This document shows positions 1,890-15,950 of a stretch of DNA of 64,000 nucleotides, piece after piece (the stretch's first letter is position 1; each line of letters starts with the position of its first letter). Both the position numbers and the translations under genes were made by a program. Below the pieces are notes generated by a model. The model was not told where the DNA came from and ran no database searches. It worked only from the letters and a program-made list of their open reading frames with translations. The stretch spans positions 128,001-192,000 of the forward strand of contig JBEKHN010000002.1 of NCBI GenBank assembly GCA_050012255.1, given 5' to 3'. The stretch is from Candidatus Bathyarchaeia archaeon (GTDB lineage: Archaea; Thermoproteota; Bathyarchaeia; Bathyarchaeales; Bathycorpusculaceae).

Positions 1890-2708
1890 TCAACTTTTTC
1901 TTTCCAAATGGCTTATGAGGCTTTCAAACACCAGTTTTCCGTCTCCGTACTCGGACATCCGTTTCTGTCTCGTCCAGTCTGGCTGCTGCCACCAGTAGAA
2001 GGCTCTTTCCGGATGCGGCATCAAGCCGAACACGGTTCCCTCAGGGTTGCACACACCCACTATGTCATGAAACGAGCCGTTCGGGTTTGTCGGATAAGCG
2101 CCCTCTGCGTACTCGCCGCCGCTGTTGCAGTAGCGGAAGACAAGCTGATCATTCTCGTAAAGCCTCTCCAAGCACTGCCTCTCTTTTTCTTTTGCAAACA
2201 TGAACCTGCCCTCACTGTGCGCGACTGGCACACGAAGTACCTTTCCCCCAGGAATCTTCGACGTGAATACGCACTTTCCCCTGTTTTCATGCTTAACGCT
2301 AACCCATCTGCAATTGTACCCTGGCGGAAAATTAGTGGCCAAGGCTGCCTCAGGATAAAGACTAATTCCTTCAAAAGCCGGAAGCAACCCTGCCTCAACG
2401 AGCACCTGAAACCCATTGCAGATGCCGAGGATCGGACGGTTTTCGTCCACAAAAACTCTCAACTCTCTGCCCAACTTGGACATTAACCATTTCGCCCATA
2501 TGGCTCCAGCTCTAACGTAATCTCCGTAAGCGAAACCGCCTGGAAAGACCAACGCGTCATAGTCTAACATGCTTCGCCGCTTCACCATCTCGTTCGCATG
2601 CACAACTTCGGCTTGAACGCCCAGCGCTTCGAACGCCCGTCTCGTCTCAGCATCACAGTTCGTTCCGCCTACCCGCGAAACACAAACCCTGATCTCTTCC
2701 CGCTTCAC
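1890..2708 (-). CDS. purQ: FGAM synthase glutaminase subunit PurQ
   Basis: GTNCD, PGGFAYGDY, GICNGFQ and MPHPER motifs. Confidence 0.97.
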   Translation of the reverse strand: MKREEIRVCVSRVGGTNCDAETRRAFEALGVQAEVVHANEMVKRRSMLDYDALVFPGGFAYGDYVRAGAIWAKWLMSKLGRELRVFVDENRPILGICNGFQVLVEAGLLPAFEGISLYPEAALATNFPPGYNCRWVSVKHENRGKCVFTSKIPGGKVLRVPVAHSEGRFMFAKEKERQCLERLYENDQLVFRYCNSGGEYAEGAYPTNPNGSFHDIVGVCNPEGTVFGLMPHPERAFYWWQQPDWTRQKRMSEYGDGKLVFESLISHLERKS

Positions 2709-2711
2709 AGC

Positions 2712-5093
2712 CTAAGCCCTCCTGCTAAACGTTCGCTTCCAACTCGCCACCAGATCATTAAGCGAAACGTCAACGACAACCTCGCCCGCCAACCCTGTGA
2801 CACACAGTCTAGGAGACTTTGTAACCCTGCCAATCTCTGCAAAAACCCTGCCTTCCATTACCTCCTCAAAACGTTCCTTCGCCTCTCCAGAAACTTCTAC
2901 GAGGAAACGACTGTTCGACTCCGAGAACAGCAGAAAATCGTCACGGTTCAACTTCTGCGAAGAAACCTTCCTCAGATCCAGCGCGATCCCGTACCCACCT
3001 GCAAAAGCCATCTCCGCTGCGCTGACGGCCAAACCTCCTTCAGAAAGGTCGTGACATGCTCTGACCAGTCCAGAATCAATCGCCCTGGTCACTGCGCCAA
3101 AGGTCTTCTCAGCCTGGTTCCTCCGCACTTTAGGCACGGTTCTTCCGAGAACTCCATTCATTCTATAGTATTCCGAACCGCCGAGCTCTTTGAAAGTTCC
3201 TCCAACGAGATAGATCAAATCATTCGCGGCCTTGACATCCACAGACACTGCGGAGCGCACATCAGGAACTATGCCTAGAGCTGTTATCAACAGCGTCGGA
3301 GTCACCGGGCCCAGAGGTGACTCGTTGTAGAGGCTGTCCTTCCCCGAGATGAACGGTGTGCCGTATCCAATCGCGAAGTCATAACATGCCTCGCACGCCC
3401 TAACCAAGCTCCCAAGCCTCTCTGGCCGTTCAGGATTGCCCCACGTAAAGTTGTCAAGAAGAGCTATTCGTCTTCCGCCCACAGCCACGTTGTTTCGCAC
3501 CGCTTCATCTATGACAGAAGCAGCCATCCAGTAAGTGTCTATTTTTCCGTAGTTCGGGTTCATGCCGCACGAGATTGCCACACCCTTCCAACTATCATCC
3601 AAAGGTTTCAACACGGCAGCGTCGTTGGGACCGCCGTTCTTGCCCTGCAATGGCTTCAGCACCGTGTTCCCTTTCACTTCATGATCGTACGTTCGCACGA
3701 CGCTCTCTTTGCTCGCAATGTTAGGCGAAGAAAGAAGCCGCAAGACCGTTTCTGCGAGGTCTTCCTGTGTGGGAACTTCAGGCTCCTCCAAGTTTGCTAC
3801 TTTGTATTTCGCCATTTTCGTCATTCTAGGCGGCTCAAACAAGAATGAGATGTCCATTTCTGCAACTGTTAGGCCGTGAAAGCTCAGTCTTAGTGTTCTG
3901 TTTGAGGTCAGCTTTCCGATGGCCGCGGCTTCAACGTCTTCATCTTCAAAAACAGCTAACAAATGTTCGAGGTTTTCAGGCGGCGCTGTTAGGAGCATTC
4001 TCTCTTGAGATTCTGAAACGTAGATTTCCCATGGGGCTAGGTCCGCATGTTTCAAGGGAACTCTTTCAAGCTCCACCGTAGCGCCGCAGTCAAACTTTTT
4101 CGCGGTTTCGCCCACGGCAGAGGACAGACCACCACCGCCTAAGTCTGTGATTGCAGATGCCAGCCCGAGGTCTCGGATTTTGATTATTGCCCTCTTGAGC
4201 TTTTCCTCCTCGATCGGGTTGGCTATCTGAACTGCGGGGCGAGAAACCTCCTCTGATTTTTCCGTCAGTTCTGCAGAAGCGAAGGTCACGCCGTGTATGC
4301 CGTCCCGGCCAGTTTTCCCACCGGCCAAAACGATGACCTCATTCGATTTCGCGTCTTTCCTAAACTTCTTGAGTGGAAGAAGCCCAACACATCCGCAGTA
4401 GACCACGACATTCCCAACGTAGCTTTCATCGAAGTATATGGCACCGTTTACCGTTGGAATGCCCATGTTATTACCGTAGCTTCCTATGCCAGCAACGACG
4501 CCCATGTAAACGTATTTTGGATGCTTAACCCCAGCTGGAAGTTTCTCATAATCAAAATCCAGCGGTCCGAATCCCAAGACATCGGTGCACGCGATCGGGT
4601 CCGCCCAAACGCCTAAGATGTCCCGGATGACACCGCCTGTTCCAGTTGCCGCACCTCCGAAGGGCTCGACTGCAGATGGGTGATTGTGCGTTTCAACTTT
4701 GATTGCTACTCCGTAACCCTTGTCAAAATCGACTATACCAGCATTATCTTCAAAAACAGAGAAGCACCAGGACGGGTTGATTTCCTCCACAACTTTCCTG
4801 ATGTACTTTTTGAACAGGTTGTCGATTTCCTTCCCGCCGAATCTTATCTTGCCCTTGAAAGTTTTGTGGAAACAGTGCTCTGACCACGTCTGTCCTATCG
4901 TTTGAAGCTCCACATCAGTGGGATTCCGTCTTTTTTTTGCGAAATACTGTTTGGCCAGATTCATTTCTTCCAGGTTCAGGCCGATGCCGAGTTCACGGCT
5001 TATCTCAACAAGCTGCTCGTTTGTTGCATTGTTAACATTAACTTCAAAGACGGGAAAAGGGGTTTCTCTTCGGATGTAAAAGCTTGCAGTCAT
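2712..5093 (-). CDS. purL: FGAM synthase subunit PurL
   Basis: WSEHCFHK, KVETHNHPS, GRDGIHG, DLGGGGL and SESQERM motifs. Confidence 0.98.
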   Translation of the reverse strand: MTASFYIRRETPFPVFEVNVNNATNEQLVEISRELGIGLNLEEMNLAKQYFAKKRRNPTDVELQTIGQTWSEHCFHKTFKGKIRFGGKEIDNLFKKYIRKVVEEINPSWCFSVFEDNAGIVDFDKGYGVAIKVETHNHPSAVEPFGGAATGTGGVIRDILGVWADPIACTDVLGFGPLDFDYEKLPAGVKHPKYVYMGVVAGIGSYGNNMGIPTVNGAIYFDESYVGNVVVYCGCVGLLPLKKFRKDAKSNEVIVLAGGKTGRDGIHGVTFASAELTEKSEEVSRPAVQIANPIEEEKLKRAIIKIRDLGLASAITDLGGGGLSSAVGETAKKFDCGATVELERVPLKHADLAPWEIYVSESQERMLLTAPPENLEHLLAVFEDEDVEAAAIGKLTSNRTLRLSFHGLTVAEMDISFLFEPPRMTKMAKYKVANLEEPEVPTQEDLAETVLRLLSSPNIASKESVVRTYDHEVKGNTVLKPLQGKNGGPNDAAVLKPLDDSWKGVAISCGMNPNYGKIDTYWMAASVIDEAVRNNVAVGGRRIALLDNFTWGNPERPERLGSLVRACEACYDFAIGYGTPFISGKDSLYNESPLGPVTPTLLITALGIVPDVRSAVSVDVKAANDLIYLVGGTFKELGGSEYYRMNGVLGRTVPKVRRNQAEKTFGAVTRAIDSGLVRACHDLSEGGLAVSAAEMAFAGGYGIALDLRKVSSQKLNRDDFLLFSESNSRFLVEVSGEAKERFEEVMEGRVFAEIGRVTKSPRLCVTGLAGEVVVDVSLNDLVASWKRTFSRRA

Positions 5094-5341
5094 CGCTTTT
5101 CCTCAATGTTGACCGAGTAATTGTCCTTTGTTGGATTTGCCAGAAGCCTTTTGCACATCTCTTCAGCTTTCATCACAGCCTCCTTCTTTGACCGAGCTTC
5201 AAGAGTGACGGTGTAGACTTTGCTGACATTAGCAGTTTCAATTTCATAGCCAAGCTCTTTCAATAGCTGTGCGGTCGTCTCGCCTTCAGGGTCGCTGTGC
5301 CCGGGCTTCAGGCTTACCTCGATTCTCAGGCGGTATTTCAT
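5090..5341 (-). CDS. purS: FGAM synthase subunit PurS
   Basis: DPEG and LLANP motifs; 4-nt overlap with purL. Confidence 0.95.
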   Translation of the reverse strand: MKYRLRIEVSLKPGHSDPEGETTAQLLKELGYEIETANVSKVYTVTLEARSKKEAVMKAEEMCKRLLANPTKDNYSVNIEEKR

Positions 5342-5398
5342 AGGCTAAGCTTGGACCGAAATGGATTTAAACGCTTTTGCCACCATCAGAACAAACTG

Positions 5399-6475
5399 CT
5401 AATCCAAAATGATTTTCTTACCCTTGTGTAGGACCCTGATTCCCCCAAGGCCTGTTACGTGACCTATCTGTTCTGATTCTACTCCTGCTTTGTTCAAAAC
5501 GTCTAAGGCTTTGTCTGTGTCGGCTTTTTCCACTATGGCTGCGAATCCCCACCCCATGTTAAATGTTCTGAACATCTCCACGTCAGTTATTGGGGTGTTT
5601 AGCTCGCTTGCGGTTTTTTGGATTAAGTCGAAGATTGGCTGTGGTTTGAAGTTGTTGAATTCAAAACCTATGTCTTGTGAAAACGTGGCCAGACGGCCAA
5701 ACTTGAGGTATGCGTCGCCAGTGATGTGCACGGCGGCCTTCACCTCCAGCTTCTCTGTCAGTCTGAGAAAAGGCTTGACGTATATTCTGGTCGGTTCCAA
5801 GACTTCATGAACCAGTTCTCGTTCTAACCCGTCAGGAACAGCGTCAGCCTTATACTTCCCGCCCCATTGCTTGAAGAGAACTCTTCTGGCGAGAGATATG
5901 CCATTGCTGTGAAGCCCTGAACTCTTCAAGCCTATTATTGGGTCCCCTGGGCCCATGTTTCTTCCTGAAATCACATCTTCTTTAGCGACTTCACCTACTG
6001 CCGCGAAAATCATGTCGAACCCCTTGCCTGCACGCAGACCCTTTATCAGATCGGCTACATCGCCAATCTCGCCGCTGGGAACTATGCATTCTGACTCGGC
6101 TGCCCCTCTTGAAATGCCTCTCATCCATTCTCTGACAAGAGAGGGATCGGAAACCTGTGCGTGGATGTTATCCGCAATTGCGATTGGTCTCGCGCCGGAA
6201 CGTATGACATCATTGACTGCCATTGCCACGCCGTCAATACCAATAGTATCATATTCGCCTGCTAGCTGAGCAATGAGCACTTTTGTGCCAACTCCTTCAA
6301 TAGCTAGGTCCAGATAGCCGTCGTGAAATGGAAATATGTTCCCGTACGGAAGCTCGACAACTTTGCCGTATCGACTGTGTTTATAGGTCTGCTTCAATAC
6401 TTGCAACGCTTTTTTTGACTCAGCTCTTAGGTCTCTGTCAACTCCAGAGTCGGAGTAAGTGAGTTTTCGGGTCAC
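5399..6475 (-). CDS. purM: AIR synthetase PurM
   Basis: YSDSGVD, EGVGTK, SSGLHSNG, HITG and TFNMGWG motifs. Confidence 0.95.
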   Translation of the reverse strand: MTRKLTYSDSGVDRDLRAESKKALQVLKQTYKHSRYGKVVELPYGNIFPFHDGYLDLAIEGVGTKVLIAQLAGEYDTIGIDGVAMAVNDVIRSGARPIAIADNIHAQVSDPSLVREWMRGISRGAAESECIVPSGEIGDVADLIKGLRAGKGFDMIFAAVGEVAKEDVISGRNMGPGDPIIGLKSSGLHSNGISLARRVLFKQWGGKYKADAVPDGLERELVHEVLEPTRIYVKPFLRLTEKLEVKAAVHITGDAYLKFGRLATFSQDIGFEFNNFKPQPIFDLIQKTASELNTPITDVEMFRTFNMGWGFAAIVEKADTDKALDVLNKAGVESEQIGHVTGLGGIRVLHKGKKIILD

Positions 6476-6660: not shown

Positions 6661-7068
6661 CTATCTCTGCCTTAGTTGCGGTTCATACAAGATCGTCGGC
6701 CTTCTAATTCCATTCTCAGCAGCCAAAAGCATGCTCAGGAGCACGTAATACTGCCTTAAAAAGTCAAGCCCTCTATCACTTGCTCTGTACACGACCTTGC
6801 CCTCTTTTAGGCCTTCTTGGATAAAGCCCATCTCAACGAGAGAACCAAGAAATCGTTTGAGTTGACCGCAATTGATGCTCGCGTGCTTCATTATAGAAAA
6901 TCTGGCCTGTCCCGCATCCTTAACCGCCTCAACCATCAAAGCTATGATTTCAAAGTGGCTTCTATATTTCTTGCCCAGAGGGAAGCCGCACATACGGTAT
7001 TTCTTCTGCAAAGGTAAGCAAGACAAATCATGATCGATGGCATAATTCTCCATGATGGAACACTTCAA
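6661..7068 (-). CDS. Archaeal winged-helix DNA-binding protein (true start probably near KKYRSHFEII)
   Basis: YRSxxEII...SIMKHASIN...L.GFI...Y..SDRG pattern typical of small archaeal wHTH regulators. Confidence 0.7.
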   Translation of the reverse strand: MKCSIMENYAIDHDLSCLPLQKKYRMCGFPLGKKYRSHFEIIALMVEAVKDAGQARFSIMKHASINCGQLKRFLGSLVEMGFIQEGLKEGKVVYRASDRGLDFLRQYYVLLSMLLAAENGIRRPTILYEPQLRQR

Positions 7069-7240: not shown

Positions 7241-7840
7241 TTGTCTCAACGTCGATTGCCGCCAGCCGAAATGAAAATTCTCGAAGAAGTGGCGAGGACG
7301 GAGCCTGTTGTCGGTAATATACGCTTACGAGAGGGAGAGTATCAATACAGCCTTGTCAAAGCAATCGCATCCTTCGAGTTAGAGTTGATGTTTCCAGATG
7401 TCAAAGACCTCATAAGAAGACTTTTTGGAGAAGAAAAATCGTCCGACCTCCAGTTTGTGCGGAAGATTCAGACCATCCTCAAGAAGATGGAGAAGAGCAA
7501 CATTGTCAGGATCTTGCCGAAGAAAAACCCTTGGCAACTCCAGAGATACGCGCTTTCAAGCTTCAAGTTTCGAGACAGCGACAAGAACCTTGTGGTTCTT
7601 GCAACGGACCAGCAAGTAAAACAGATGCAAGATCTGCTTCATTCTGCTTTGACCCAACAAGAAAAAGGAAGAAGAGACTACTTCAAGGTTCTTCCATTGA
7701 TGTTGGTTGTAATTGCATCGTATTTCGCGGTTGTATGGGCCCTCACACAGCCAGTCATCAACGCGGTCATTTTCATTTCTGGACTGTTTGTTTCTGTCAC
7801 GTGTTCCGTAATACTAGGAGAAATACTCAGTACAAAATGA
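7241..7840 (+). CDS. Hypothetical protein, possible N-terminal wHTH plus two C-terminal TM helices
   Basis: 199-aa ORF; LKKMEKSNIVRIL helix-wing-like segment; hydrophobic C-terminus. Confidence 0.55.
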   Translation: MSQRRLPPAEMKILEEVARTEPVVGNIRLREGEYQYSLVKAIASFELELMFPDVKDLIRRLFGEEKSSDLQFVRKIQTILKKMEKSNIVRILPKKNPWQLQRYALSSFKFRDSDKNLVVLATDQQVKQMQDLLHSALTQQEKGRRDYFKVLPLMLVVIASYFAVVWALTQPVINAVIFISGLFVSVTCSVILGEILSTK

Positions 7841-7892: not shown

Positions 7893-9461
7893 GTGATTGA
7901 TTTGAGAAGAAGTATTTCGATCTTGTTGATTGGCTTGTCTTTAGCATTCATGTTTTCCTTTGCTAGATGCAAGGTGTCCGTGAAGGCAAGTTCGGAGGTA
8001 ATCAACGTTCCGGAAGACTTTAAAAAAATCCAAGATGCCATAAACAATGCAAGTTCAGGGGCGACGATCCTCATAGGCAACGGCACCTACTATGAATCTC
8101 TGACTATAAACAAAACCTTGACACTTCTTGGACAAGGCAGAGATGTGACAACCATTGATGGCAACGGTGCTAATTACGCAGTTTCAGTAACGGCTGACAA
8201 TGTGACCATTGAACATTTGACCGTCACGAACACAGGTGCAGGACCCTATGTCAACGGTGTTCACGCGGATCGGTGCAAAGGAGTTATCATTAACAATACT
8301 AAGATAGCGAAAACCTACACTGGACTTACTGTTTCCTTTTTAGGTAACAGTGTTTTTTCGGCCAACATCATCGCGAATAATACTAACGGGGTCTTGCTAC
8401 TCTACTCCAACAATAACGTGTTTTCAAACAACATTGTTCAAAGCAATTCTGAGGGAATCAGCCTTTATTATTCGAACAGCAACGTGTTTTCTGCCAGCAC
8501 GGTTTCAAACAATGTCGAAGGAGTTTTTCTCTCTTCGCCGAGTAATAGGAACTACTTTTATCATAACAACTTTCAGGATCCGGTTCAGGTGACGGAGGGG
8601 TCACCGAACATTTGGAGCTACAACGGAGAAGGTAACTACTGGAGTAGCTATAACTTCACTGGTCGAGACCCGGACGCTGATGGAATCGGCGATGAGCCTT
8701 ACTACATAGATGATACCAACAGGGACGACTATCCTTTGATGGGAACCTTTTCTGAGTTCAGCATCGTGATGAAACAGGAAGAGCGCTATGTCACAGTCGT
8801 TAGCAACTCCACAATTTCTGATTTCGGGTTCGAAATTGGAAAGGAAACTGGCAACAAGATACTCAGCTTCAAAGCGGCTGGTGAGAGTGGCACCACCAGC
8901 TTCTGCAGACTGATGATCCCAACGTCACTAATGGAATATCCTTTTACTGTCCTTGACAATGAAGGAGAACTCACTACTTCTGTGTTAAACGCGTCAGACG
9001 CGACGAGCACCTATCTGTATTTCACGTATGTCCAAAACGATCAGAATGTTGCAGTAATTTCTTCAATAGCGTTGCAGCAGTATAACCAATTGCTTGACAA
9101 GTACACGAGGCTTCAAACGGACCTTGACAACCTGAACTCCACGTATCAAGCTCTTCTGACTTACTACGACGTGAAGCTGCAAGCGGAGATCGACAGTTTG
9201 AACGCCACGTATCAAGCCGCGCTGAATGGCCTCAGCATGTTGTTGCAAAACTTGAGTCAACTCCAAACTAGCTATCTGGCATTGAGCTCCTCTCTTCAGA
9301 AGAACATGCTGGATCAATCTGATAATTTGCAAAACATTCATAATCTGACATACATCTTTGCCGCTTCAACAGCAGCCTTCTTGATAACTACCGTGTACCT
9401 GTCAACCCGTGCAAAAGCGACCAACAAGCCGAAGCCCTATTTTGGTGAAGAAAAGGAATAG
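7893..9461 (+). CDS. NosD/CASH right-handed beta-helix cell-surface protein with coiled coil and C-terminal TM anchor
   Basis: VPEDFKKIQDAIN, GTYYE, repeated Asn-rich beta-helix turns, GNYWSSY...DADGIGDEPY...DDYPLM. Confidence 0.85.
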   Translation: MIDLRRSISILLIGLSLAFMFSFARCKVSVKASSEVINVPEDFKKIQDAINNASSGATILIGNGTYYESLTINKTLTLLGQGRDVTTIDGNGANYAVSVTADNVTIEHLTVTNTGAGPYVNGVHADRCKGVIINNTKIAKTYTGLTVSFLGNSVFSANIIANNTNGVLLLYSNNNVFSNNIVQSNSEGISLYYSNSNVFSASTVSNNVEGVFLSSPSNRNYFYHNNFQDPVQVTEGSPNIWSYNGEGNYWSSYNFTGRDPDADGIGDEPYYIDDTNRDDYPLMGTFSEFSIVMKQEERYVTVVSNSTISDFGFEIGKETGNKILSFKAAGESGTTSFCRLMIPTSLMEYPFTVLDNEGELTTSVLNASDATSTYLYFTYVQNDQNVAVISSIALQQYNQLLDKYTRLQTDLDNLNSTYQALLTYYDVKLQAEIDSLNATYQAALNGLSMLLQNLSQLQTSYLALSSSLQKNMLDQSDNLQNIHNLTYIFAASTAAFLITTVYLSTRAKATNKPKPYFGEEKE

Positions 9462-10071: not shown

Positions 10072-10995
10072 TCAACTCGTGCCAAGAAATTTTTTCAAGT
10101 CGTCAAGTGTTGGCAGGCCACTTCTCGCGCCCATAGTGGTGATAGACCTTGAGGCGACGAAATTGCCTATTTTTCCGGCTTCATTAATGTTCTTGCCGGA
10201 GAGTAGCCCGAATATGAAGCCAGCGTCGAAAGCGTCGCCAGCCCCGGTGGTGTCCACAACCTTAACTTTGAAAGGTTCCACCAGGTGGCTTTCACCTCTG
10301 TCTATAACGTAGCATCCTTTACTTCCCAGCTTTACAGCTAGGACTTCAACACCTTCATCAATTAGCAATCGTGCGCCGGCCTTATAGTCAGTCTTGCCTG
10401 TTAGCAATGCGATTTCACCTGCGTTTGGCATCATTACAGAGGTCTTGTCTATGATGGGCTTTAGTTTCGTCAATCCGATTCTCGCGTAAAGTGCTCCCGG
10501 GTCGAAACTCACCTTGACCTTTTCCGGCAGCCTGTCAACAAGTCTTTTCTGTGTTTCGAACGACTGTTTTCCAGCGAAGGATGATAAATGCAAGAATTTG
10601 GTGCTTGACGCATAGGCGCTATCTGTTTCGTCGATTTTTATCGTGTCGTTCACGCCAGGGTCGATGTACAATGCCCGTTCTCCCTCTTTGCCCACGAAAC
10701 CCATCACTTTGCCGCTTCTTCCTACCTTAGCAACCGTTACGCCTCTGGTGTCAACACCCTCTTTTCGAAGATCTTGAAGCAGCATTCTTCCTTCAGGGTC
10801 GCTGGCAACCTTGCCGATGAAGCCTACCTTGCAGCCAAGTCTTGCCATGGCCACCATGGTGTTTGCCGCTGAGCCGCCGCAAGCCTCTGAGTGATCGACG
10901 ACAAAACTTTCTTCCTCGGCAGCGGCTATTCTGTTCACTTTAAATAGCTTGTCAACGTTGAGGGCGCCGAACCCAATGGCATCGAGTTCGCTCAT
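10072..10995 (-). CDS. PfkB/ribokinase-family kinase (EhaT-like; possible nucleoside kinase)
   Basis: GGSAAN...ARLG and DTTGAGDAF PfkB signatures; ATGA overlap with upstream ftr-like gene. Confidence 0.92.
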
Positions 10996-11906
10996 CGAAA
11001 CAGCTCTTTCAAATTTATCTTGTAATCGCCTAGCTTTCCACCGTAGTTTCCTGCAGAAATCCTCACCACGCCATCAACGCTCAACGCCGCTTCTATGCCG
11101 GCCTTCATTGCTTTTCTAACAGCGTCCATTGAGATGCCGTTGATCACTATTTCTGGGATATAGTTGACGCCTTCTGGCACTTTGGACTCGTCTTTTAGCT
11201 TCCTTTTCAGGGAGGGGCAGTAGGGATGATTTGTGGTAGGTCCTATAAGGGGAAAGCGTGTTTCAGTCTTCGACCCGGCTGAGCAGACGTCGAATGGGGT
11301 TGTCACGCCCTCAACCTGATGTATGGCTTCCAGCGCTTTCTTTCCGGCATCGACTACTTGTTTTTTCGCTTTGCACATGTACCAGAAGTTGCCACCAGCG
11401 ATTCCTCTCGCATAGCCGATGAAACGCTCTATGAGAAAATCGGGCACCATGATTGGAACGACGAGCACTTTTTTTCCGTATAGTTGCTCTTCCCACTCAT
11501 GCCCGTCTCCGCAGTGTCCAACCCTTTCCATCATGTCTATTTTCCCCTCAGGCTTCACGGACAAAGCGTCGAACACCGCTGTGAAAGGCTTTACCAAGAT
11601 GTCTTGACGAATTCGGTAGGAAAGCTCCTTTTCAAAACGGCCAAGCATGTTTTCTAAAGGTTTCCCTCTATCTAGGCCCTTCCAGAACTGCAAGATTGCT
11701 CCTTTTCGGTCGTCGGGCGTTTCATTCTTCCCGAGCAGTCTTTCGACTCCGCTGTCAAGTCTGCCTATAACGCCCGACGGCGTTGCGGTCGCATCGTCAG
11801 CAGCCTTCTTAACTGTCTCTTCGTCGTCGGCGGTCACTATCACGCGACAGTATAATCCTGAAAAGGCTTCGGCATACGTGTCTTCAATCAAGTTTTTCTT
11901 AATCAA
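10992..11906 (-). CDS. Formylmethanofuran:H4MPT formyltransferase (Ftr) paralogue, divergent (EhaS-like)
   Basis: [43 protein letters not shown]; non-canonical [11 protein letters not shown] and [12 protein letters not shown] segments. Confidence 0.9.
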
Positions 11907-11908
11907 AC

Positions 11909-12991
11909 CTATCCTAACCTGCCGATAGCTTCTCCTCTGACCTTCTTTCTAAACTCGCTGCTCTCCTTCGCTAGGTCTTTCATGTTTTCTCTCGTTATTA
12001 TTTTGGCTTTGGGCAGTTCTCGAGGATGCAGTTTGAGAAAACGTTCTCGCAAGTCCACGTTCACTAAACTATTCTCTAGTGTTCTGCGATTCCATTTCGC
12101 CACTAGTTTTAGCGTTTCCGTTTTTCCGAACCTGACGAAAACGTCGGCGATCAGCGCTGTCGTCAAACTGTCCGCGGAAAGCAGTGCGATTTCAGCGTTT
12201 CTGACAGCGTATTGGTTCCCGTTGAACGAAACAGCCAGACCGCCGTTTTCCTTCACAAGCTTGAAGGCTTCCTCGTCAGTTATGCTGTCACCCACATACA
12301 TCGTGTCCGTTAAAGCCACGCCATCCTTGCCTGCGATGTCCTTTATTGCTTCAGCTTTTTCTCTGCCGCCAACAGGGTTGACTTCAGAATAGATTTTTCC
12401 GATTGGCATTTTGGCAATGGTTTTCCAGAAAATCTCGTCCAGCCTTCGAATTGTTGTCCGGGTCTCTTCTGGAAGGTCTTTTAGGCTCTTCGCTTCTGCT
12501 GGACTCTCGAACACGGGTAACTGCACGATTTCACGGCCGGCCTTTTTCAAGCAGTCTTTCTCCTCTGAGGTTATGGCGTATACATCCAAGCTGAGCTTAG
12601 TGCAGTAGGTTTTCTCAAACGGAAACTCAAGAGCCTTGCACAAGGCCCTGATGTAGTGTTCGTAGCTTGTGCTGACGATGTATGCCGGCGCAATGCTTCT
12701 CACGTGTCGAAGCGAGTCCCCTGCGTGTGCGATCAGGACGAGGTTTCTGGCAGAAAACTGTCTGATCTCCTCGTCTGTGACGTCGTAAGCCTTGAGGAAG
12801 GGTAGCACAAGCTTCAACGTGTCGCCTGCCTCGTAACCAGGTCTTCTCAACACGTCTGAAAGGACATCATCATACCTGCTTACGACGGTGAAGAGTCTGT
12901 CGCCCTGTGGGACAAAATGTGACAGCGTTTCGAGAGCGTTGTCGTTCTTCGAAATGGGTCCTTCACAGTCTGTGATGAAAAGCCTCTTCAC
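11909..12991 (-). CDS. HAD-superfamily hydrolase, EhaR/COG4030-like
   Basis: FITDCEGP motif I, VSTSY motif II, K and YVGDSITD motifs III/IV; GTGA overlap with purD stop. Confidence 0.85.
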
Positions 12992-14415
12992 GACTTGCGC
13001 CTCAACTTCTCCATGTGTCTTACGCTCTTCTCTATGTGGCTTTCTGAGGCTACGTCGGTTCGATTCCAGAGGGCTCCACCCCGTATTGCCTTCAAGCCTT
13101 CAAGGGAGATCTGCCGAGCTTTTTCTATGCTTTCGCTGATCCCCACGGCGCACACAGCTCTGGATTTGAGGGCGAAGGTCCTGCCGTCGCGTTTTTCCAT
13201 TGATGCCGGGTAGATTCGAATGTCGTCACCGTATTTCATGCTCAGTTCATAAGCTCTGGTCAAATCGACTGGTCTGTCAATGCTGTCTGCTTTGACAAGG
13301 CTTGGGAAGGTTTCTGCGTATCCACCGTAGGAAGGTGGAGCCTTGTAGGTTACTACCGTCGCGGCTTTTTCTAATTGGAGCCTTGTCAAGTTACCTTCCA
13401 ACATTTTGAAGCAGACATCAAGGAAATCATCCTTCAAAACGGGCATTATGTTGATTATCTCGGGGTCTCCTGGTCGACTGTTGTTCTCAAGAATCTTCAG
13501 TTTTCTGCGTGTGTGCATGAAAGCAACGTAGAAAGGAACGCCTCGAAGGGCTGAGCTGTCTTCTCCTTTCCATTCTTGAAAGATCGTGTTGACAACGTTC
13601 AGCTCCTTGGCGCGATCAGCATCGGTCAGAAAAGGCAACACGTCTCCGACGCCCTTGTAAGACCCCATTCCTCCAGTGTTCGCTCCCTTATCGTCGTCGA
13701 ACGCCCGTTTGTAGTCTCTTGTATCCGGCAGGGGTACGAGGTGTTTTCCGTCGCAGAACGCCTGAAAGCTTGATTCCTCTCCTTCGATTTTTTCTTCTAT
13801 TATCACTGAACCGTGCTGGTAGTTTGAGAGGAAGTGATCGAACAGTTGTTCTCGGTTCGTAAAGTCGTCACCCCAGACACCGACCCCCTTTCCAGCCGCT
13901 GGCTTGTCGGGTTTAACTACAGCTTGGTCAGCCAGTTTGTCGAGCCAATCGTAAACATCCTTCTTGACTTCTGCAAGGGTTTTGTACTCTTTTGGGTTGA
14001 ATATCTTAAAGCGCGGGTTTACTTCGGGGGTGACTCTTTTGAAAAGGAGTCGTTGTTGAACTTTGCTTCCTTCCAGGGCACATCGCTTTGTTGGACAGAT
14101 CAGGGGTATTCCTGTTCGTTTCTCTAAGAGATCTCGTATTCCCTCGATTATCGGTTTTTCAGGGCCGACAATGCCGAAGTCAATTCTATGTTTGTTCATG
14201 TCTGCGAATTTGCAGATTTCTTCAACATTCAGATCAGGTATTACAACGTGTTTTGCTGCCCTTTTCGCGTTGAAGGGGTTGCGTTGCTTATCGGCAACGT
14301 AGATCTCCACTTTGTATCTTTGGCTGCGGGCGAAAGCGTCAATCATGGCTGCTTCTCTTGACCCATAAGAAACAACGAGTACGCCTACTTTTTCCATGAG
14401 TAACCCGCCTGCCAT
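12988..14415 (-). CDS. purD: Phosphoribosylamine-glycine ligase PurD (start may be 14397)
   Basis: GSREAA, VGPE, AGKGV, GEESS, DYKRAFDDDKGANTGGMG and NSRPGDPE motifs. Confidence 0.96.
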   Translation of the reverse strand: MAGGLLMEKVGVLVVSYGSREAAMIDAFARSQRYKVEIYVADKQRNPFNAKRAAKHVVIPDLNVEEICKFADMNKHRIDFGIVGPEKPIIEGIRDLLEKRTGIPLICPTKRCALEGSKVQQRLLFKRVTPEVNPRFKIFNPKEYKTLAEVKKDVYDWLDKLADQAVVKPDKPAAGKGVGVWGDDFTNREQLFDHFLSNYQHGSVIIEEKIEGEESSFQAFCDGKHLVPLPDTRDYKRAFDDDKGANTGGMGSYKGVGDVLPFLTDADRAKELNVVNTIFQEWKGEDSSALRGVPFYVAFMHTRRKLKILENNSRPGDPEIINIMPVLKDDFLDVCFKMLEGNLTRLQLEKAATVVTYKAPPSYGGYAETFPSLVKADSIDRPVDLTRAYELSMKYGDDIRIYPASMEKRDGRTFALKSRAVCAVGISESIEKARQISLEGLKAIRGGALWNRTDVASESHIEKSVRHMEKLRRKS

Positions 14416-14444
14416 CGGATTGACCGTGAAGACCAGTTCTTGTG

Positions 14445-15950
14445 CTAGGCTCTAGGAACAGCTTCTTCCATTTCGTACAGTCTTTCTGTCTCTTCAAAAC
14501 CCTGCGAGAACCGTTTCTTCATCTCATCGGCTATTGCTTGAGCTAGCGGTGTTGGATATTTGCCTGTTATGCATCCCGTGCACAACTCGTCCTGCTTAAA
14601 CCCCGTTGCTTGTACCAAGCCTTCGAGTGACTGGTAGCACACGGCGTCTGCTCCTATGATCTTTGAGATTTCTTCCGTGCTGTGTTTTGAGCCTATGAGT
14701 TGGCCATATGTTGCCATGTCTATTCCGTACAGACATGGTCCGATTATCCGTGGAAAAGTAACGAAAACATACACTTTCTCGGCGCCCATCCTGCGCAATT
14801 TGTCAACTATGACCTTTGTCGTGTCCCCTCTGACGATGCTGTCTTCGGTTACTATGATGCGTTTTCCATCGATTTTGGGCCCAAGGATGTTGATTTTCCT
14901 CTCTATCGTTGGGCTTCGGTCCTTGCTAAGCAGGATGAAGGCTCTCTCGGTTACGTAGCGGTGTCTTCGTGAAGCCCTTTCCCACCTCAACCCAGAAGCT
15001 TCGTGAACGCCGAGGGCCGAGTCGTCGCCTGTTTCAGGCACGGAAAGAATTATATCCGCGTCCTTGACCACCGTCGGATTCTCTCTCACCAGGTTTCTTC
15101 CAAATTCTTCACGAATTTCATAGACGTACTTGCTGTCAAACCGTGAGTCTGGCCTTGCAAAGTATGCGAATTCAAAGGCGCAGAAAGCCTTTCCTTTCCC
15201 GTTTACGAGCTTCTGTCTTTCAAACCCTTTGTTTGAAACCGTGACGAGCTCTCCTGGCTGGAGCTCGAAATCTCTTACGAAACCGTTTATGTCTAAACTG
15301 GCGGTTTCAGACGAGAATGCATACGTTGAGTGGTCTTCGCTGTGGCCTGCGCACAACGGCCTTATTCCATGCGGGTCCTTGAAGGCGACGAGATTGCCGT
15401 TTTGGTCCATGCACGCCACAGAAAAGGCTCCGTCGATTTCTTCCATACATGTCCCAACGGCGGACGTTAGATCCTTTCCTTTCAAGAGTTCGATTAGCAG
15501 TTTGTAACAGATCAAATCTGCGTCACATTCATAGGCAAACTGTGGAAACTCCTTGCGTATCTCTTTCCGAAGCTCGAACGTGTTGACCACGTTGCCGTTG
15601 TATGAAACGGCGAGCCCATGACCTTGTCTTGAAGCCGTCACTGGTTGCGTTCCTTCCACGAGCGATTTCTCGTCGCATTTTCCAGACGTTGTGTACCTTA
15701 CGTTTCCAATGCCGACATTTCCAGGCAACCGGCCAAACCATTCTTGAATTGCGCTCGTTCTAATCTTCGGCACGAGGTCGAGGCTTCTGTGAACGTGGAA
15801 CTTCCCATCAAGATACGTGAGGAAACCGTGAGACTGATGTCCCCTGTGGTTTTCAGCCCGCAAACCCCAATAAATGTATTGAAACACTGGCCGCTTATCG
15901 TAGTTTACTGCTGCAAACACTCCACATGCGATCTTCGGCTGGTCTCCCAT
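14445..15950 (-). CDS. purF: Amidophosphoribosyltransferase PurF
   Basis: N-terminal CGVF, HRG, RYTTSG, CAFEFAYFARPDS, EDSIVRGDT, PCLYGIDM and CTGCITG motifs. Confidence 0.97.
   Translation of the reverse strand: MGDQPKIACGVFAAVNYDKRPVFQYIYWGLRAENHRGHQSHGFLTYLDGKFHVHRSLDLVPKIRTSAIQEWFGRLPGNVGIGNVRYTTSGKCDEKSLVEGTQPVTASRQGHGLAVSYNGNVVNTFELRKEIRKEFPQFAYECDADLICYKLLIELLKGKDLTSAVGTCMEEIDGAFSVACMDQNGNLVAFKDPHGIRPLCAGHSEDHSTYAFSSETASLDINGFVRDFELQPGELVTVSNKGFERQKLVNGKGKAFCAFEFAYFARPDSRFDSKYVYEIREEFGRNLVRENPTVVKDADIILSVPETGDDSALGVHEASGLRWERASRRHRYVTERAFILLSKDRSPTIERKINILGPKIDGKRIIVTEDSIVRGDTTKVIVDKLRRMGAEKVYVFVTFPRIIGPCLYGIDMATYGQLIGSKHSTEEISKIIGADAVCYQSLEGLVQATGFKQDELCTGCITGKYPTPLAQAIADEMKKRFSQGFEETERLYEMEEAVPRA

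Follow-up and report, generated by a model that had tools for sequence, protein, structure and literature searches.

De novo purine synthesis is among the best-charted pathways, and its third step, the formylation of glycinamide ribonucleotide (GAR) to formylglycinamide ribonucleotide (FGAR), is known from two systems, PurN (Formyl_trans_N domain, His/Asp catalysis) and PurT (ATP-grasp), which use 10-formyl-tetrahydrofolate and formate plus ATP, respectively. The present analysis concerns three adjacent genes that follow purF and purD in a 64,000-nt stretch of the genome of a Candidatus Bathyarchaeia archaeon, G000 (hereafter the window, contig C2:128001-192000, to which all window coordinates are relative). 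They encode an EhaR-like protein of the HAD superfamily, a paralogue (Ftr2) of formylmethanofuran:tetrahydromethanopterin formyltransferase (Ftr, EC 2.3.1.101) and an EhaT-like PfkB kinase. The same three families, as EhaR, EhaS and EhaT, stand at the end of the ehaA-T operon of Methanothermobacter, which was reportedly first described by Tersteegen and Hedderich in 1999.

Passages of Brown 2011 (PMC3261824) report that purN and purT are missing in two Archaeoglobi, four Methanobacteriales (printed there as 'Methanomicrobiales', although the species named are Methanobacteriales) and Methanopyrus kandleri. In the sections of Chadwick 2022 (PMC9012536) relevant here, an uncharacterised 'Ftr2' clade is placed in ANME-1 (anaerobic methanotrophic archaea), ANME-2a/b, Archaeoglobales, M. 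kandleri and Methanothermobacter, and elsewhere ANME-1, Archaeoglobales and Methanobacteriales are said to be without both GAR enzymes, the two statements not being joined in those sections. On these sources, Archaeoglobi, Methanobacteriales, Methanopyrus and ANME-1 have been known since 2011 as groups without a step-3 enzyme, and our analysis adds most Bathyarchaeia. Kaster 2011 (PMC3087415), in its passages on Eha, describes EhaS as Ftr-like and EhaT as ribokinase-like, and regards both as Eha subunits for which a metabolic function is unlikely; the role of Eha itself is given as anaplerotic in the abstract of PMC3585446. No mention of EhaR/S/T, Ftr or purine is made in Adam 2022 (PMC9635834), and full-text literature searches retrieved no published link between Ftr2/EhaS and GAR formylation.

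In the window, purF, purD and the three genes are co-oriented, with 29 nt between purF and purD, a 4-nt overlap of purD and the HAD gene, 2 nt between the HAD gene and Ftr2 and a 4-nt overlap of Ftr2 and the PfkB gene, while purM-purS-purL-purQ (steps 5 and 4; span 1890-6475) lie 3.6 kb downstream of the PfkB gene on the same strand. This arrangement, on which the original prediction was built, was confirmed from the coordinates of the open reading frames (ORFs; Table 1). Differently from the Methanothermobacter genes, the window trio follows purF-purD, and no hydrogenase gene was found in the unit formed by aspS (95 nt upstream of purF), purF-purD and the trio, so that the unit is not part of an eha operon here. 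The parallel with ehaR/S/T drawn earlier is borne out by the Joint Genome Institute (JGI) name for the HAD homologues, 'energy-converting hydrogenase A subunit R', together with the description of EhaS and EhaT in the cited passages of Kaster 2011 (PMC3087415); orthology of the two trios rests on these source names and on the tree in the part of Chadwick 2022 (PMC9012536) dealing with Ftr2.

The original prediction had also held that step 3 is missing in this archaeon, and the whole assembly (2.35 Mb, 38 contigs, 98.54% complete) was searched accordingly. Across the genome no match was found to PF00551 (PurN-type) or PF01808 (PurH), nor to TIGR01142 (PurT) at E<=0.001, and purF, purD, purS, purL, purQ and purM are all encoded; the step-3 gap is thus real. 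PurP (PF06849), the formate-dependent enzyme of the other formylation step, gave its sole matches at C4:121917-122252 (L133) and C1:9-125 (L134), and its gene seems to have been divided by the assembly between two contig ends, which suggests that contigs C4 and C1 are adjacent. Two Ftr genes are present, a canonical one on contig C13 and Ftr2 in the window, so that Ftr2 is not the sole Ftr of the genome. The genes for FwdC and Mch adjoin each other on contig C18, in agreement with the earlier remark that no fwd or mch gene is near the trio, and Mtd was not found in the genome search. Since canonical Ftr, FwdC and Mch are encoded, the cell is expected to make both formyl-methanofuran and formyl-tetrahydromethanopterin (formyl-H4MPT), which leaves GAR formylation as the sole formyl transfer in this genome without an assigned enzyme.

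We propose that EhaR, Ftr2 and the PfkB kinase form a module for purine step 3 in archaea without PurN and PurT, a reading to which we give a probability of about 0.6, and that Ftr2 is probably the formyltransferase of this step. Comparative genomics lends good support to placing the trio at step 3, through gene order, protein families, conserved catalytic motifs, phyletic pattern and operon slot, each of which is directly observed. The trio would be a functional equivalent of PurN and PurT, with a complementary distribution, and an analogue of both rather than a member of either family: Ftr2 has no sequence relationship with them, and its proposed donor is a methanogen-type one-carbon (C1) carrier instead of 10-formyl-tetrahydrofolate or formate plus ATP.

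The distribution of the three systems was followed in Thermoproteota and Halobacteriota, statements on Methanobacteriota, among which Methanococcales have PurT, resting on the literature. Among 201 Thermoproteota genomes (G000 included), Ftr2 occurs in 24, that is in 23 of the 29 Bathyarchaeia plus one partial match elsewhere; PF00551 is found in 70 and a PurT-like protein (E<=1e-60) in 46, although 30 of these 46 score 206-330 bits against a cut-off of 502 and may not be PurT. PurD is encoded by 137 of the 201 genomes, and in 131 of these a single one of the three is present (22 Ftr2, 66 PF00551, 43 PurT-like), with two genomes carrying two of them and four carrying none, including one (G023) with an Ftr2 fragment at a contig end. 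Conversely, none of the three is present in 59 of the 64 genomes without PurD.

The Halobacteriota sample comprised 201 genomes, at least 85% complete, centred on the Ca. Mnemosynella locus described below. Matches were obtained for Ftr2 in 83 genomes (E<=1e-70, all with at least 50% identity), for EhaR in 87, for the EhaT-like PfkB kinase in 91 (E<=1e-45), for PF00551 in 107 and for PurT-like proteins in 12 (E<=1e-130). When these results were cross-tabulated, from genome lists transcribed by hand, a PurN-type or PurT-like match was present in 4 and absent in 79 of the 83 Ftr2-bearing genomes, and was present in 113 and absent in 5 of the 118 genomes without Ftr2; all of these last five carry EhaR and PfkB. 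PurN or PurT is therefore not routinely found in the same genome as the trio, as the original prediction expected, the corresponding figure for Thermoproteota being 1 of 24 Ftr2-bearing genomes. The whole trio occurs in 75 of the 201 Halobacteriota and all three genes are missing in 107, indicating that here the trio genes travel together even where they are unlinked.

Ftr2 shows Ftr domains over its full length (PF01913, 143 bits; PF02741, 197 bits) and includes the N-terminal peptides (23 letters) quoted earlier as distinguishing it from methanogen Ftr. It scores 347.8 bits against the Ftr subfamily model NF002554 (cut-off 297) and 245.9 bits against the Ftr equivalog TIGR03119, under its cut-off of 292.6. 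Identity with the canonical Ftr of the same genome is 38%, and full-length alignments to solved Ftr enzymes have E-values of 1e-49 to 1e-56. With these canonical enzymes (PDB 1FTR/2FHJ/2FHK of M. kandleri, 1M5H, 1M5S) Ftr2 shares the two-lobe fold, the catalytic Glu and a Gly/Pro framework, whereas it differs by an identity of ~38-45%, by its separate clade and by its position in a purine operon, away from fwd/mch. Residue E252 of Ftr2 aligns with residue 245 of M. kandleri Ftr (counted on the 1FTR chain), which we take to be the catalytic Glu245, and this Glu is retained in 22/22 Ftr2 and 22/25 canonical-type sequences. The oxyanion-stabilising Glu of the Ftr homologue FhcD is Glu252, according to the passages on that enzyme in Hemmann 2019 (PMC6926001).

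A first Ftr tree was built with 58 representatives (270-400 aa, drawn from the 150 best matches of an exhaustive search) and the two Ftr proteins of G000; the cluster members of ten representatives bear the generic labels Thermoproteota, Crenarchaeota and Aenigmarchaeota only. A canonical Ftr/FhcD clade of 41 rows was separated from 19 non-canonical rows including the window protein, with 99 support in the Shimodaira-Hasegawa-like approximate likelihood ratio test (SH-aLRT). After addition of Halobacteriota sequences, 22 Ftr2 and 25 canonical rows were separated by a branch of length 0.68 with SH-aLRT 100; the groups of this second tree were picked from the first tree and identity, so that its independent part is the branch support. 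Ftr2 thus forms a clade apart from the canonical enzymes, as anticipated. Eleven positions are conserved in at least 85% of Ftr2 and rare in canonical Ftr (G17, P43, V46, G48, W75, R100, C132, W175, I221, G222, P223), and R100, C132, G222 and P223 are invariant in 27 Ftr2 sequences. Furthermore, compared with canonical Ftr, nine residues are inserted near positions 75-90 of Ftr2 and two are deleted from the 'FPGG' loop. The position of R100 is mostly Gly in canonical Ftr, and this residue could act as a phosphate binder.

The protein data leave Ftr2 compatible with an ordinary Ftr isoenzyme of the H4MPT-dependent Wood-Ljungdahl or methanogenic C1 pathway, serving other conditions or variants of the cofactor, the pur pattern then reflecting lineage history: the NF002554 cut-off is passed, the catalytic Glu is kept, Ftr2 is confined to H4MPT-type lineages and, outside Bathyarchaeia, it does not stand beside pur genes. 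Several observations render this explanation very unlikely. A canonical Ftr is also encoded in G000, and another bathyarchaeal genome (G028) has canonical Ftr but neither PurD nor Ftr2. Within a single Bathyarchaeia family, the genus g33 has a PurT-like gene and its sister genus g34 has Ftr2, neither of them having both. Ten Halobacteriota genomes have a PurT-like protein and no PF00551 match, and Ftr2 is absent in 10/10 of them, which argues that the Ftr2 pattern tracks GAR formylation and not folate use in general. Finally, in the Bathyarchaeia family f14 (G268, G299), without Ftr2, a divergent PurN-like gene (Table 1) occupies the same operon slot, directly after purF-purD. Its products score 62-66 bits with PF00551 and 73-77 bits with the PurN model, under the cut-off of 150, and may represent a PurN variant using a non-folate carrier.

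The step-3 reading is further sustained by gene neighbourhoods. An EhaR search of genome contigs retrieved 80 loci (EhaR identity 47-90%), 78 of which are labelled Bathyarchaeia, Bathyarchaeota or Bathyarchaeales; the other labels encountered are an uncultured archaeon, a metagenome-assembled 'Candidatus Acidoferrum sp.' contig and Ca. Mnemosynella. From its named homologues the archaeon itself falls in Bathyarchaeia. In 71 of 73 evaluable loci the EhaR gene is immediately preceded by purD, which shows the predicted linkage to be conserved across Bathyarchaeia, and a purF homologue precedes purD in 46 of 68 evaluable loci. Ftr2 comes after the EhaR gene in 64 of 76 loci and PfkB next in 57 of 71. 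In genome G260 the order is purC-purF-purD-EhaR-Ftr2-PfkB-purE-purM. Linkage of the trio with pur genes is a feature of Bathyarchaeia, plus the Ca. Mnemosynella locus.

This last locus (L080, MTMI02000007.1, Ca. Mnemosynella biddleae, NCBI class Archaeoglobi) shows purD-EhaR-Ftr2-PfkB in the bathyarchaeal order, with 49-67% identity to the window proteins; either the block was transferred whole or the contig was mis-binned.

Transfer of the cassette is also indicated in an Mcr-encoding Halobacteriota group, whose Ftr2 has 67-70% identity with the bathyarchaeal type and falls together with it in the tree (98 SH-aLRT). In five of these genomes (loci L135-L139; G119, G080, G060, G096, G038) Ftr2 is flanked by decayed remnants of the EhaR 3'-end, 18-60 residues long, the last ~18 codons being recognisable (E<=1e-3) in 5/5; even the shortest remnant (L138) is 78% identical to the window EhaR over 18 residues. 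Decayed PfkB 5'-end remnants (29-50 residues) lie beside Ftr2 in 2/5 genomes. Apparently the whole cassette was transferred and Ftr2 alone retained beside resident EhaR and PfkB.

The small ORFs resembling the EhaR C-terminus before Ftr2 in the five genomes were also considered as a docking peptide, and this was rejected given their variable length (18-60 residues) and one upstream stop; remnants of a transferred cassette explain them better, because decayed PfkB N-terminal remnants are found downstream.

The putative phosphate-handling partners are less firmly placed by family models. The window HAD protein has weak HAD matches in Pfam and NCBIfam, all under cut-offs, and its sole solved relative by sequence is AF1437 of Archaeoglobus fulgidus (PDB 1Y8A, E 2.9e-30), a structural-genomics protein without assigned function. 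A Foldseek search with the AlphaFold2 model of EhaR (predicted local distance difference test 94.7) returned 1y8a with template modelling scores of 0.78/0.89, followed by phosphoserine phosphatases at ~0.46; motif I (D-x-E-G-P) and motif IV (GDSI(S/T)D) are common to EhaR and AF1437, although identity in the structural alignment is 26%. Over 38 sequences from two phyla, D8, E10, G11, P12, S107, K212, G234, D235, S236, D239, R348, R352 and G360 are invariant, and HAD motifs I-IV are hence complete (D8-x-E10, S107, K212, G234-D235-S236-x-x-D239); a C-terminal tail R-x3-R-G-x6-G is invariant too. The Asp+2 position of motif I is Glu, a variant known from enolase-phosphatase. From its motifs and modelled fold, EhaR is a probable phosphatase or phosphotransferase. 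The kinase matches PF00294 with 183.6 bits, and its best NCBIfam model is ribokinase (171.5 bits, cut-off 299.65); it falls under every equivalog cut-off, including those of ribokinase, ribose-1-phosphate kinases and nucleoside kinase, and its best solved relatives are ribokinases and YdjH (~90 bits). A complex prediction for two copies of Ftr2 with EhaR gave scores of 0.01 and 0.00 against a mark of 0.32 and, run without controls, is evidence neither way.

As to the mechanism, Ftr2 would take the formyl group of a methanogen-type C1 carrier and place it on the primary amine of the glycinamide part. The donor might be N5-formyl-H4MPT, in which case the acceptor would replace methanofuran and the reaction would run in the FhcD direction; equally open is formyl-methanofuran, with the acceptor in the H4MPT site. 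The acceptor presents H2N-CH2 on a five-membered oxygen ring, resembling the aminomethylfuran head of methanofuran, and could for this reason occupy the methanofuran site. A precedent for the proposed direction and type of acceptor is FhcD (PDB 6S6Y), which, in the relevant passages of Hemmann 2019 (PMC6926001), formylates a furan cofactor on its primary amine, with formyl-H4MPT as the source; FhcD, which aligns with Ftr2 at E 5e-27, differs in working inside an Fwd-like complex with bound prosthetic methylofuran. EhaR and PfkB may act on the 5'-phosphate of a ribosyl intermediate, as a ribokinase-type kinase and a small-substrate HAD phosphatase would fit such chemistry. They might bracket the transfer in a cycle of dephosphorylation, formylation and rephosphorylation, one ATP pulling a roughly thermoneutral reaction, or might salvage dephosphorylated intermediates.

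In its strictest form, this would be a third, non-homologous GAR formylation route in which Ftr2 acts on glycinamide riboside between the HAD phosphatase and the PfkB kinase, with one ATP making it irreversible; we regard this form as doubtful, and a dephosphorylated riboside as the acceptor as unlikely. Somewhat more room, if still short of even odds, is left for a sub-variant of the step-3 reading, and not an alternative to it, in which Ftr2 alone formylates 5'-phosphorylated GAR, EhaR and PfkB being co-regulated for a separate ribose-phosphate or nucleoside function, such as salvage of dephosphorylated purine intermediates or supply of ribose-5-phosphate or phosphoribosyl pyrophosphate. Four related Halobacteriota genomes (G050, G072, G081, G089) indeed hold an EhaR-PfkB operon and PF00551 without Ftr2, a relative (G105) having all; in the Mcr-encoding group, Ftr2 is the sole survivor of the cassette and presumably works with the resident EhaR and PfkB, whose identity with the donor type is only 30-47%; and the invariant R100 could bind the phosphate. 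On the other hand, the trio is jointly present or jointly absent in most Halobacteriota, with the counts given above, and tightly coupled in most Bathyarchaeia, a fidelity unusual for a loosely related side function. The cassette remnant and the four Ftr2-less genomes together suggest that Ftr2 is an exchangeable catalytic core, and show that EhaR and PfkB can persist without it. Of the original prediction, the assignment to step 3 has stood, whereas support is lacking for the formyl donor and for removal and return of the phosphate by the HAD protein and the kinase; persistence of EhaR and PfkB with PurN in the absence of Ftr2 speaks to some extent against an obligatory cycle.

It could also be supposed that the trio releases formate or activated C1 from formyl-H4MPT or formyl-methanofuran, in an Fhc-like manner, for PurP and for a hypothetical ATP-dependent GAR enzyme. 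The Ftr homologue FhcD of bacteria runs in the formate-releasing direction according to the cited part of Hemmann 2019 (PMC6926001), and PurP needs formate, as stated in the passage concerned of Kaster 2011 (PMC3087415). However, the unit contains no hydrolase partner, PurT- and PurP-bearing genomes also need formate and are without Ftr2, and step 3 would still be left without an enzyme. Moreover, where extra domains could be recognised in long Ftr representatives, they were of Fwd/Fhc type (Amidohydro_3, GXGXG), and the proteins so fused are canonical-type Ftr (35-37% identity), not Ftr2. Taken with these facts, formate release appears highly improbable. The search for longer proteins, which is weak evidence, gave no fusion of Ftr2 with EhaR, PfkB or Pur proteins; the one longer protein that turned up is a canonical-type Ftr (36% identity).

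Several points weigh against the step-3 module as proposed, besides the low PurT-like scores in Thermoproteota and the passing of NF002554 mentioned above. The sampled genomes share kinship, and the counts consequently overstate the number of independent events. Five Ftr2-bearing genomes (4 Halobacteriota, 1 Thermoproteota) have a PF00551 or PurT-like match as well. In 20 extended Halobacteriota loci, homologues of PurF, PurD, PurM and PurL are absent within ~7 kb, and Halobacteriota Ftr2 either is solitary or has a TPR protein and an archaeal fructose-1,6-bisphosphatase as neighbours. The four genomes with EhaR-PfkB and without Ftr2 imply that EhaR and PfkB need not depend on Ftr2, and an obligatory phosphatase/formyltransferase/kinase cycle is thereby weakened. 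From the literature, passages of Brown 2011 (PMC3261824) cite the view that formyl-H4MPT is no functional formyl donor, and read the labelling of Methanosphaera stadtmanae (purine C8 from acetate C2) as favouring a folate carrier.

A carrier-bound donor could nevertheless reconcile the labelling that Brown 2011 (PMC3261824), in the same passages, calls inconsistent: C8 of M. stadtmanae purines would derive from acetate C2 by way of serine and methylene-H4MPT, and that of Methanobrevibacter smithii from a CO2-derived pool. Likewise, the place of the trio in the eha operon would be explained, the module draining formyl-methanofuran for biosynthesis and the hydrogenase, anaplerotic according to the abstract of PMC3585446, refilling the pool.

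If the proposal is true, a known fold would have given rise to a third system of GAR formylation, and a textbook gap would be closed. Nucleotide biosynthesis would then be seen for the first time to draw on a methanogen-type C1 carrier, contrary to the view that formyl-H4MPT cannot be a biosynthetic formyl donor. EhaR, EhaS and EhaT would be recast as purine enzymes rather than hydrogenase subunits or a 'second Ftr', and their re-annotation would alter metabolic models of methanogens, ANME archaea and Bathyarchaeia. A question open since 2011 is in this way made directly testable.

Table 1. Position of the genes of the two purine clusters, of the ORFs between them and of the PurN-like genes of family f14.
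Feature	Sequence	Coordinates	Strand	Length	Domains, scores or role
purF, amidophosphoribosyltransferase	window	14445-15950	-	501 aa	purine step 1; first gene of unit
purD, GAR synthetase	window	12988-14415	-	475 aa	step 2; GARS_N, GARS_A, GARS_C
EhaR-like HAD-superfamily gene	window	11909-12991	-	360 aa	weak HAD matches
Ftr2 (EhaS-like), Ftr paralogue	window	10992-11906	-	304 aa	PF01913 + PF02741
EhaT-like PfkB kinase, ribokinase-like	window	10072-10995	-	307 aa	PF00294; last gene of unit
NosD-like beta-helix protein	window	7893-9461	+	522 aa	between the two purine clusters
Unassigned ORF	window	7241-7840	+	199 aa	between the two purine clusters
Winged-helix HTH_45 protein	window	6661-7068	-		between the two purine clusters
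purM	window	5399-6475	-		step 5; TIGR00878 249.6 bits
purS	window	5090-5341	-		PurS domain
purL	window	2712-5093	-		FGAR-AT_linker + AIRS domains
purQ	window	1890-2708	-		GATase_5
f14 PurN-like gene	L147	6799-7635	-	278-299 aa (both loci)	
f14 PurN-like gene	L148	5923-6822	-	278-299 aa (both loci)	

The downstream neighbour of the trio is the NosD-like gene, on the opposite strand. Some of the purine enzymes score under the cut-offs of their models: the window PurF has 315 bits against TIGR01134 (cut-off 350), with GATase_6/7 domains present, and the window PurD 248 bits against TIGR00877 (cut-off 288). Bathyarchaeia PurD matches lie under this last cut-off in 27 of 28 cases (206-270 bits, G023 being the listed exception), and those of two PurT-like bearing genomes of family f13, genus g33, score 370-376 bits. 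As divergent PurD is also found beside the PurN-like variant of the slot, it looks lineage-specific, not trio-specific.

In Halobacteriota the trio genes occur in other surroundings. A group without Mcr (L113, L115, L117, L118, L119) has EhaR, a small TPR protein, an archaeal fructose-1,6-bisphosphatase (PF01950) and Ftr2, and in two of these loci (L118, L119) a class II aldolase-like gene also lies inside the EhaR-Ftr2 cluster. In an Archaeoglobus-like group EhaR and PfkB are paired and Ftr2 is located elsewhere, the small genome G105 shows asd-EhaR-PfkB-Ftr2, and the Mcr-encoding group has EhaR alone. Neighbours of EhaR in these loci, none of which gives a pointer to the substrate, include the TPR protein, FBPase_3, the class II aldolase-like protein, a DtxR-type repressor, FeoB, S6e and aIF5B, as well as a small GTPase, S-adenosylmethionine synthetase, Nre, Alba, a CBS protein, an amidohydrolase and a tRNA synthetase. 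The gene for the small GTPase, of MMR_HSR1 type, adjoins EhaR or EhaR-PfkB in two Halobacteriota groups (L140-L143; L120, L122, L123, L126, L127), an adjacency that may represent conserved synteny.

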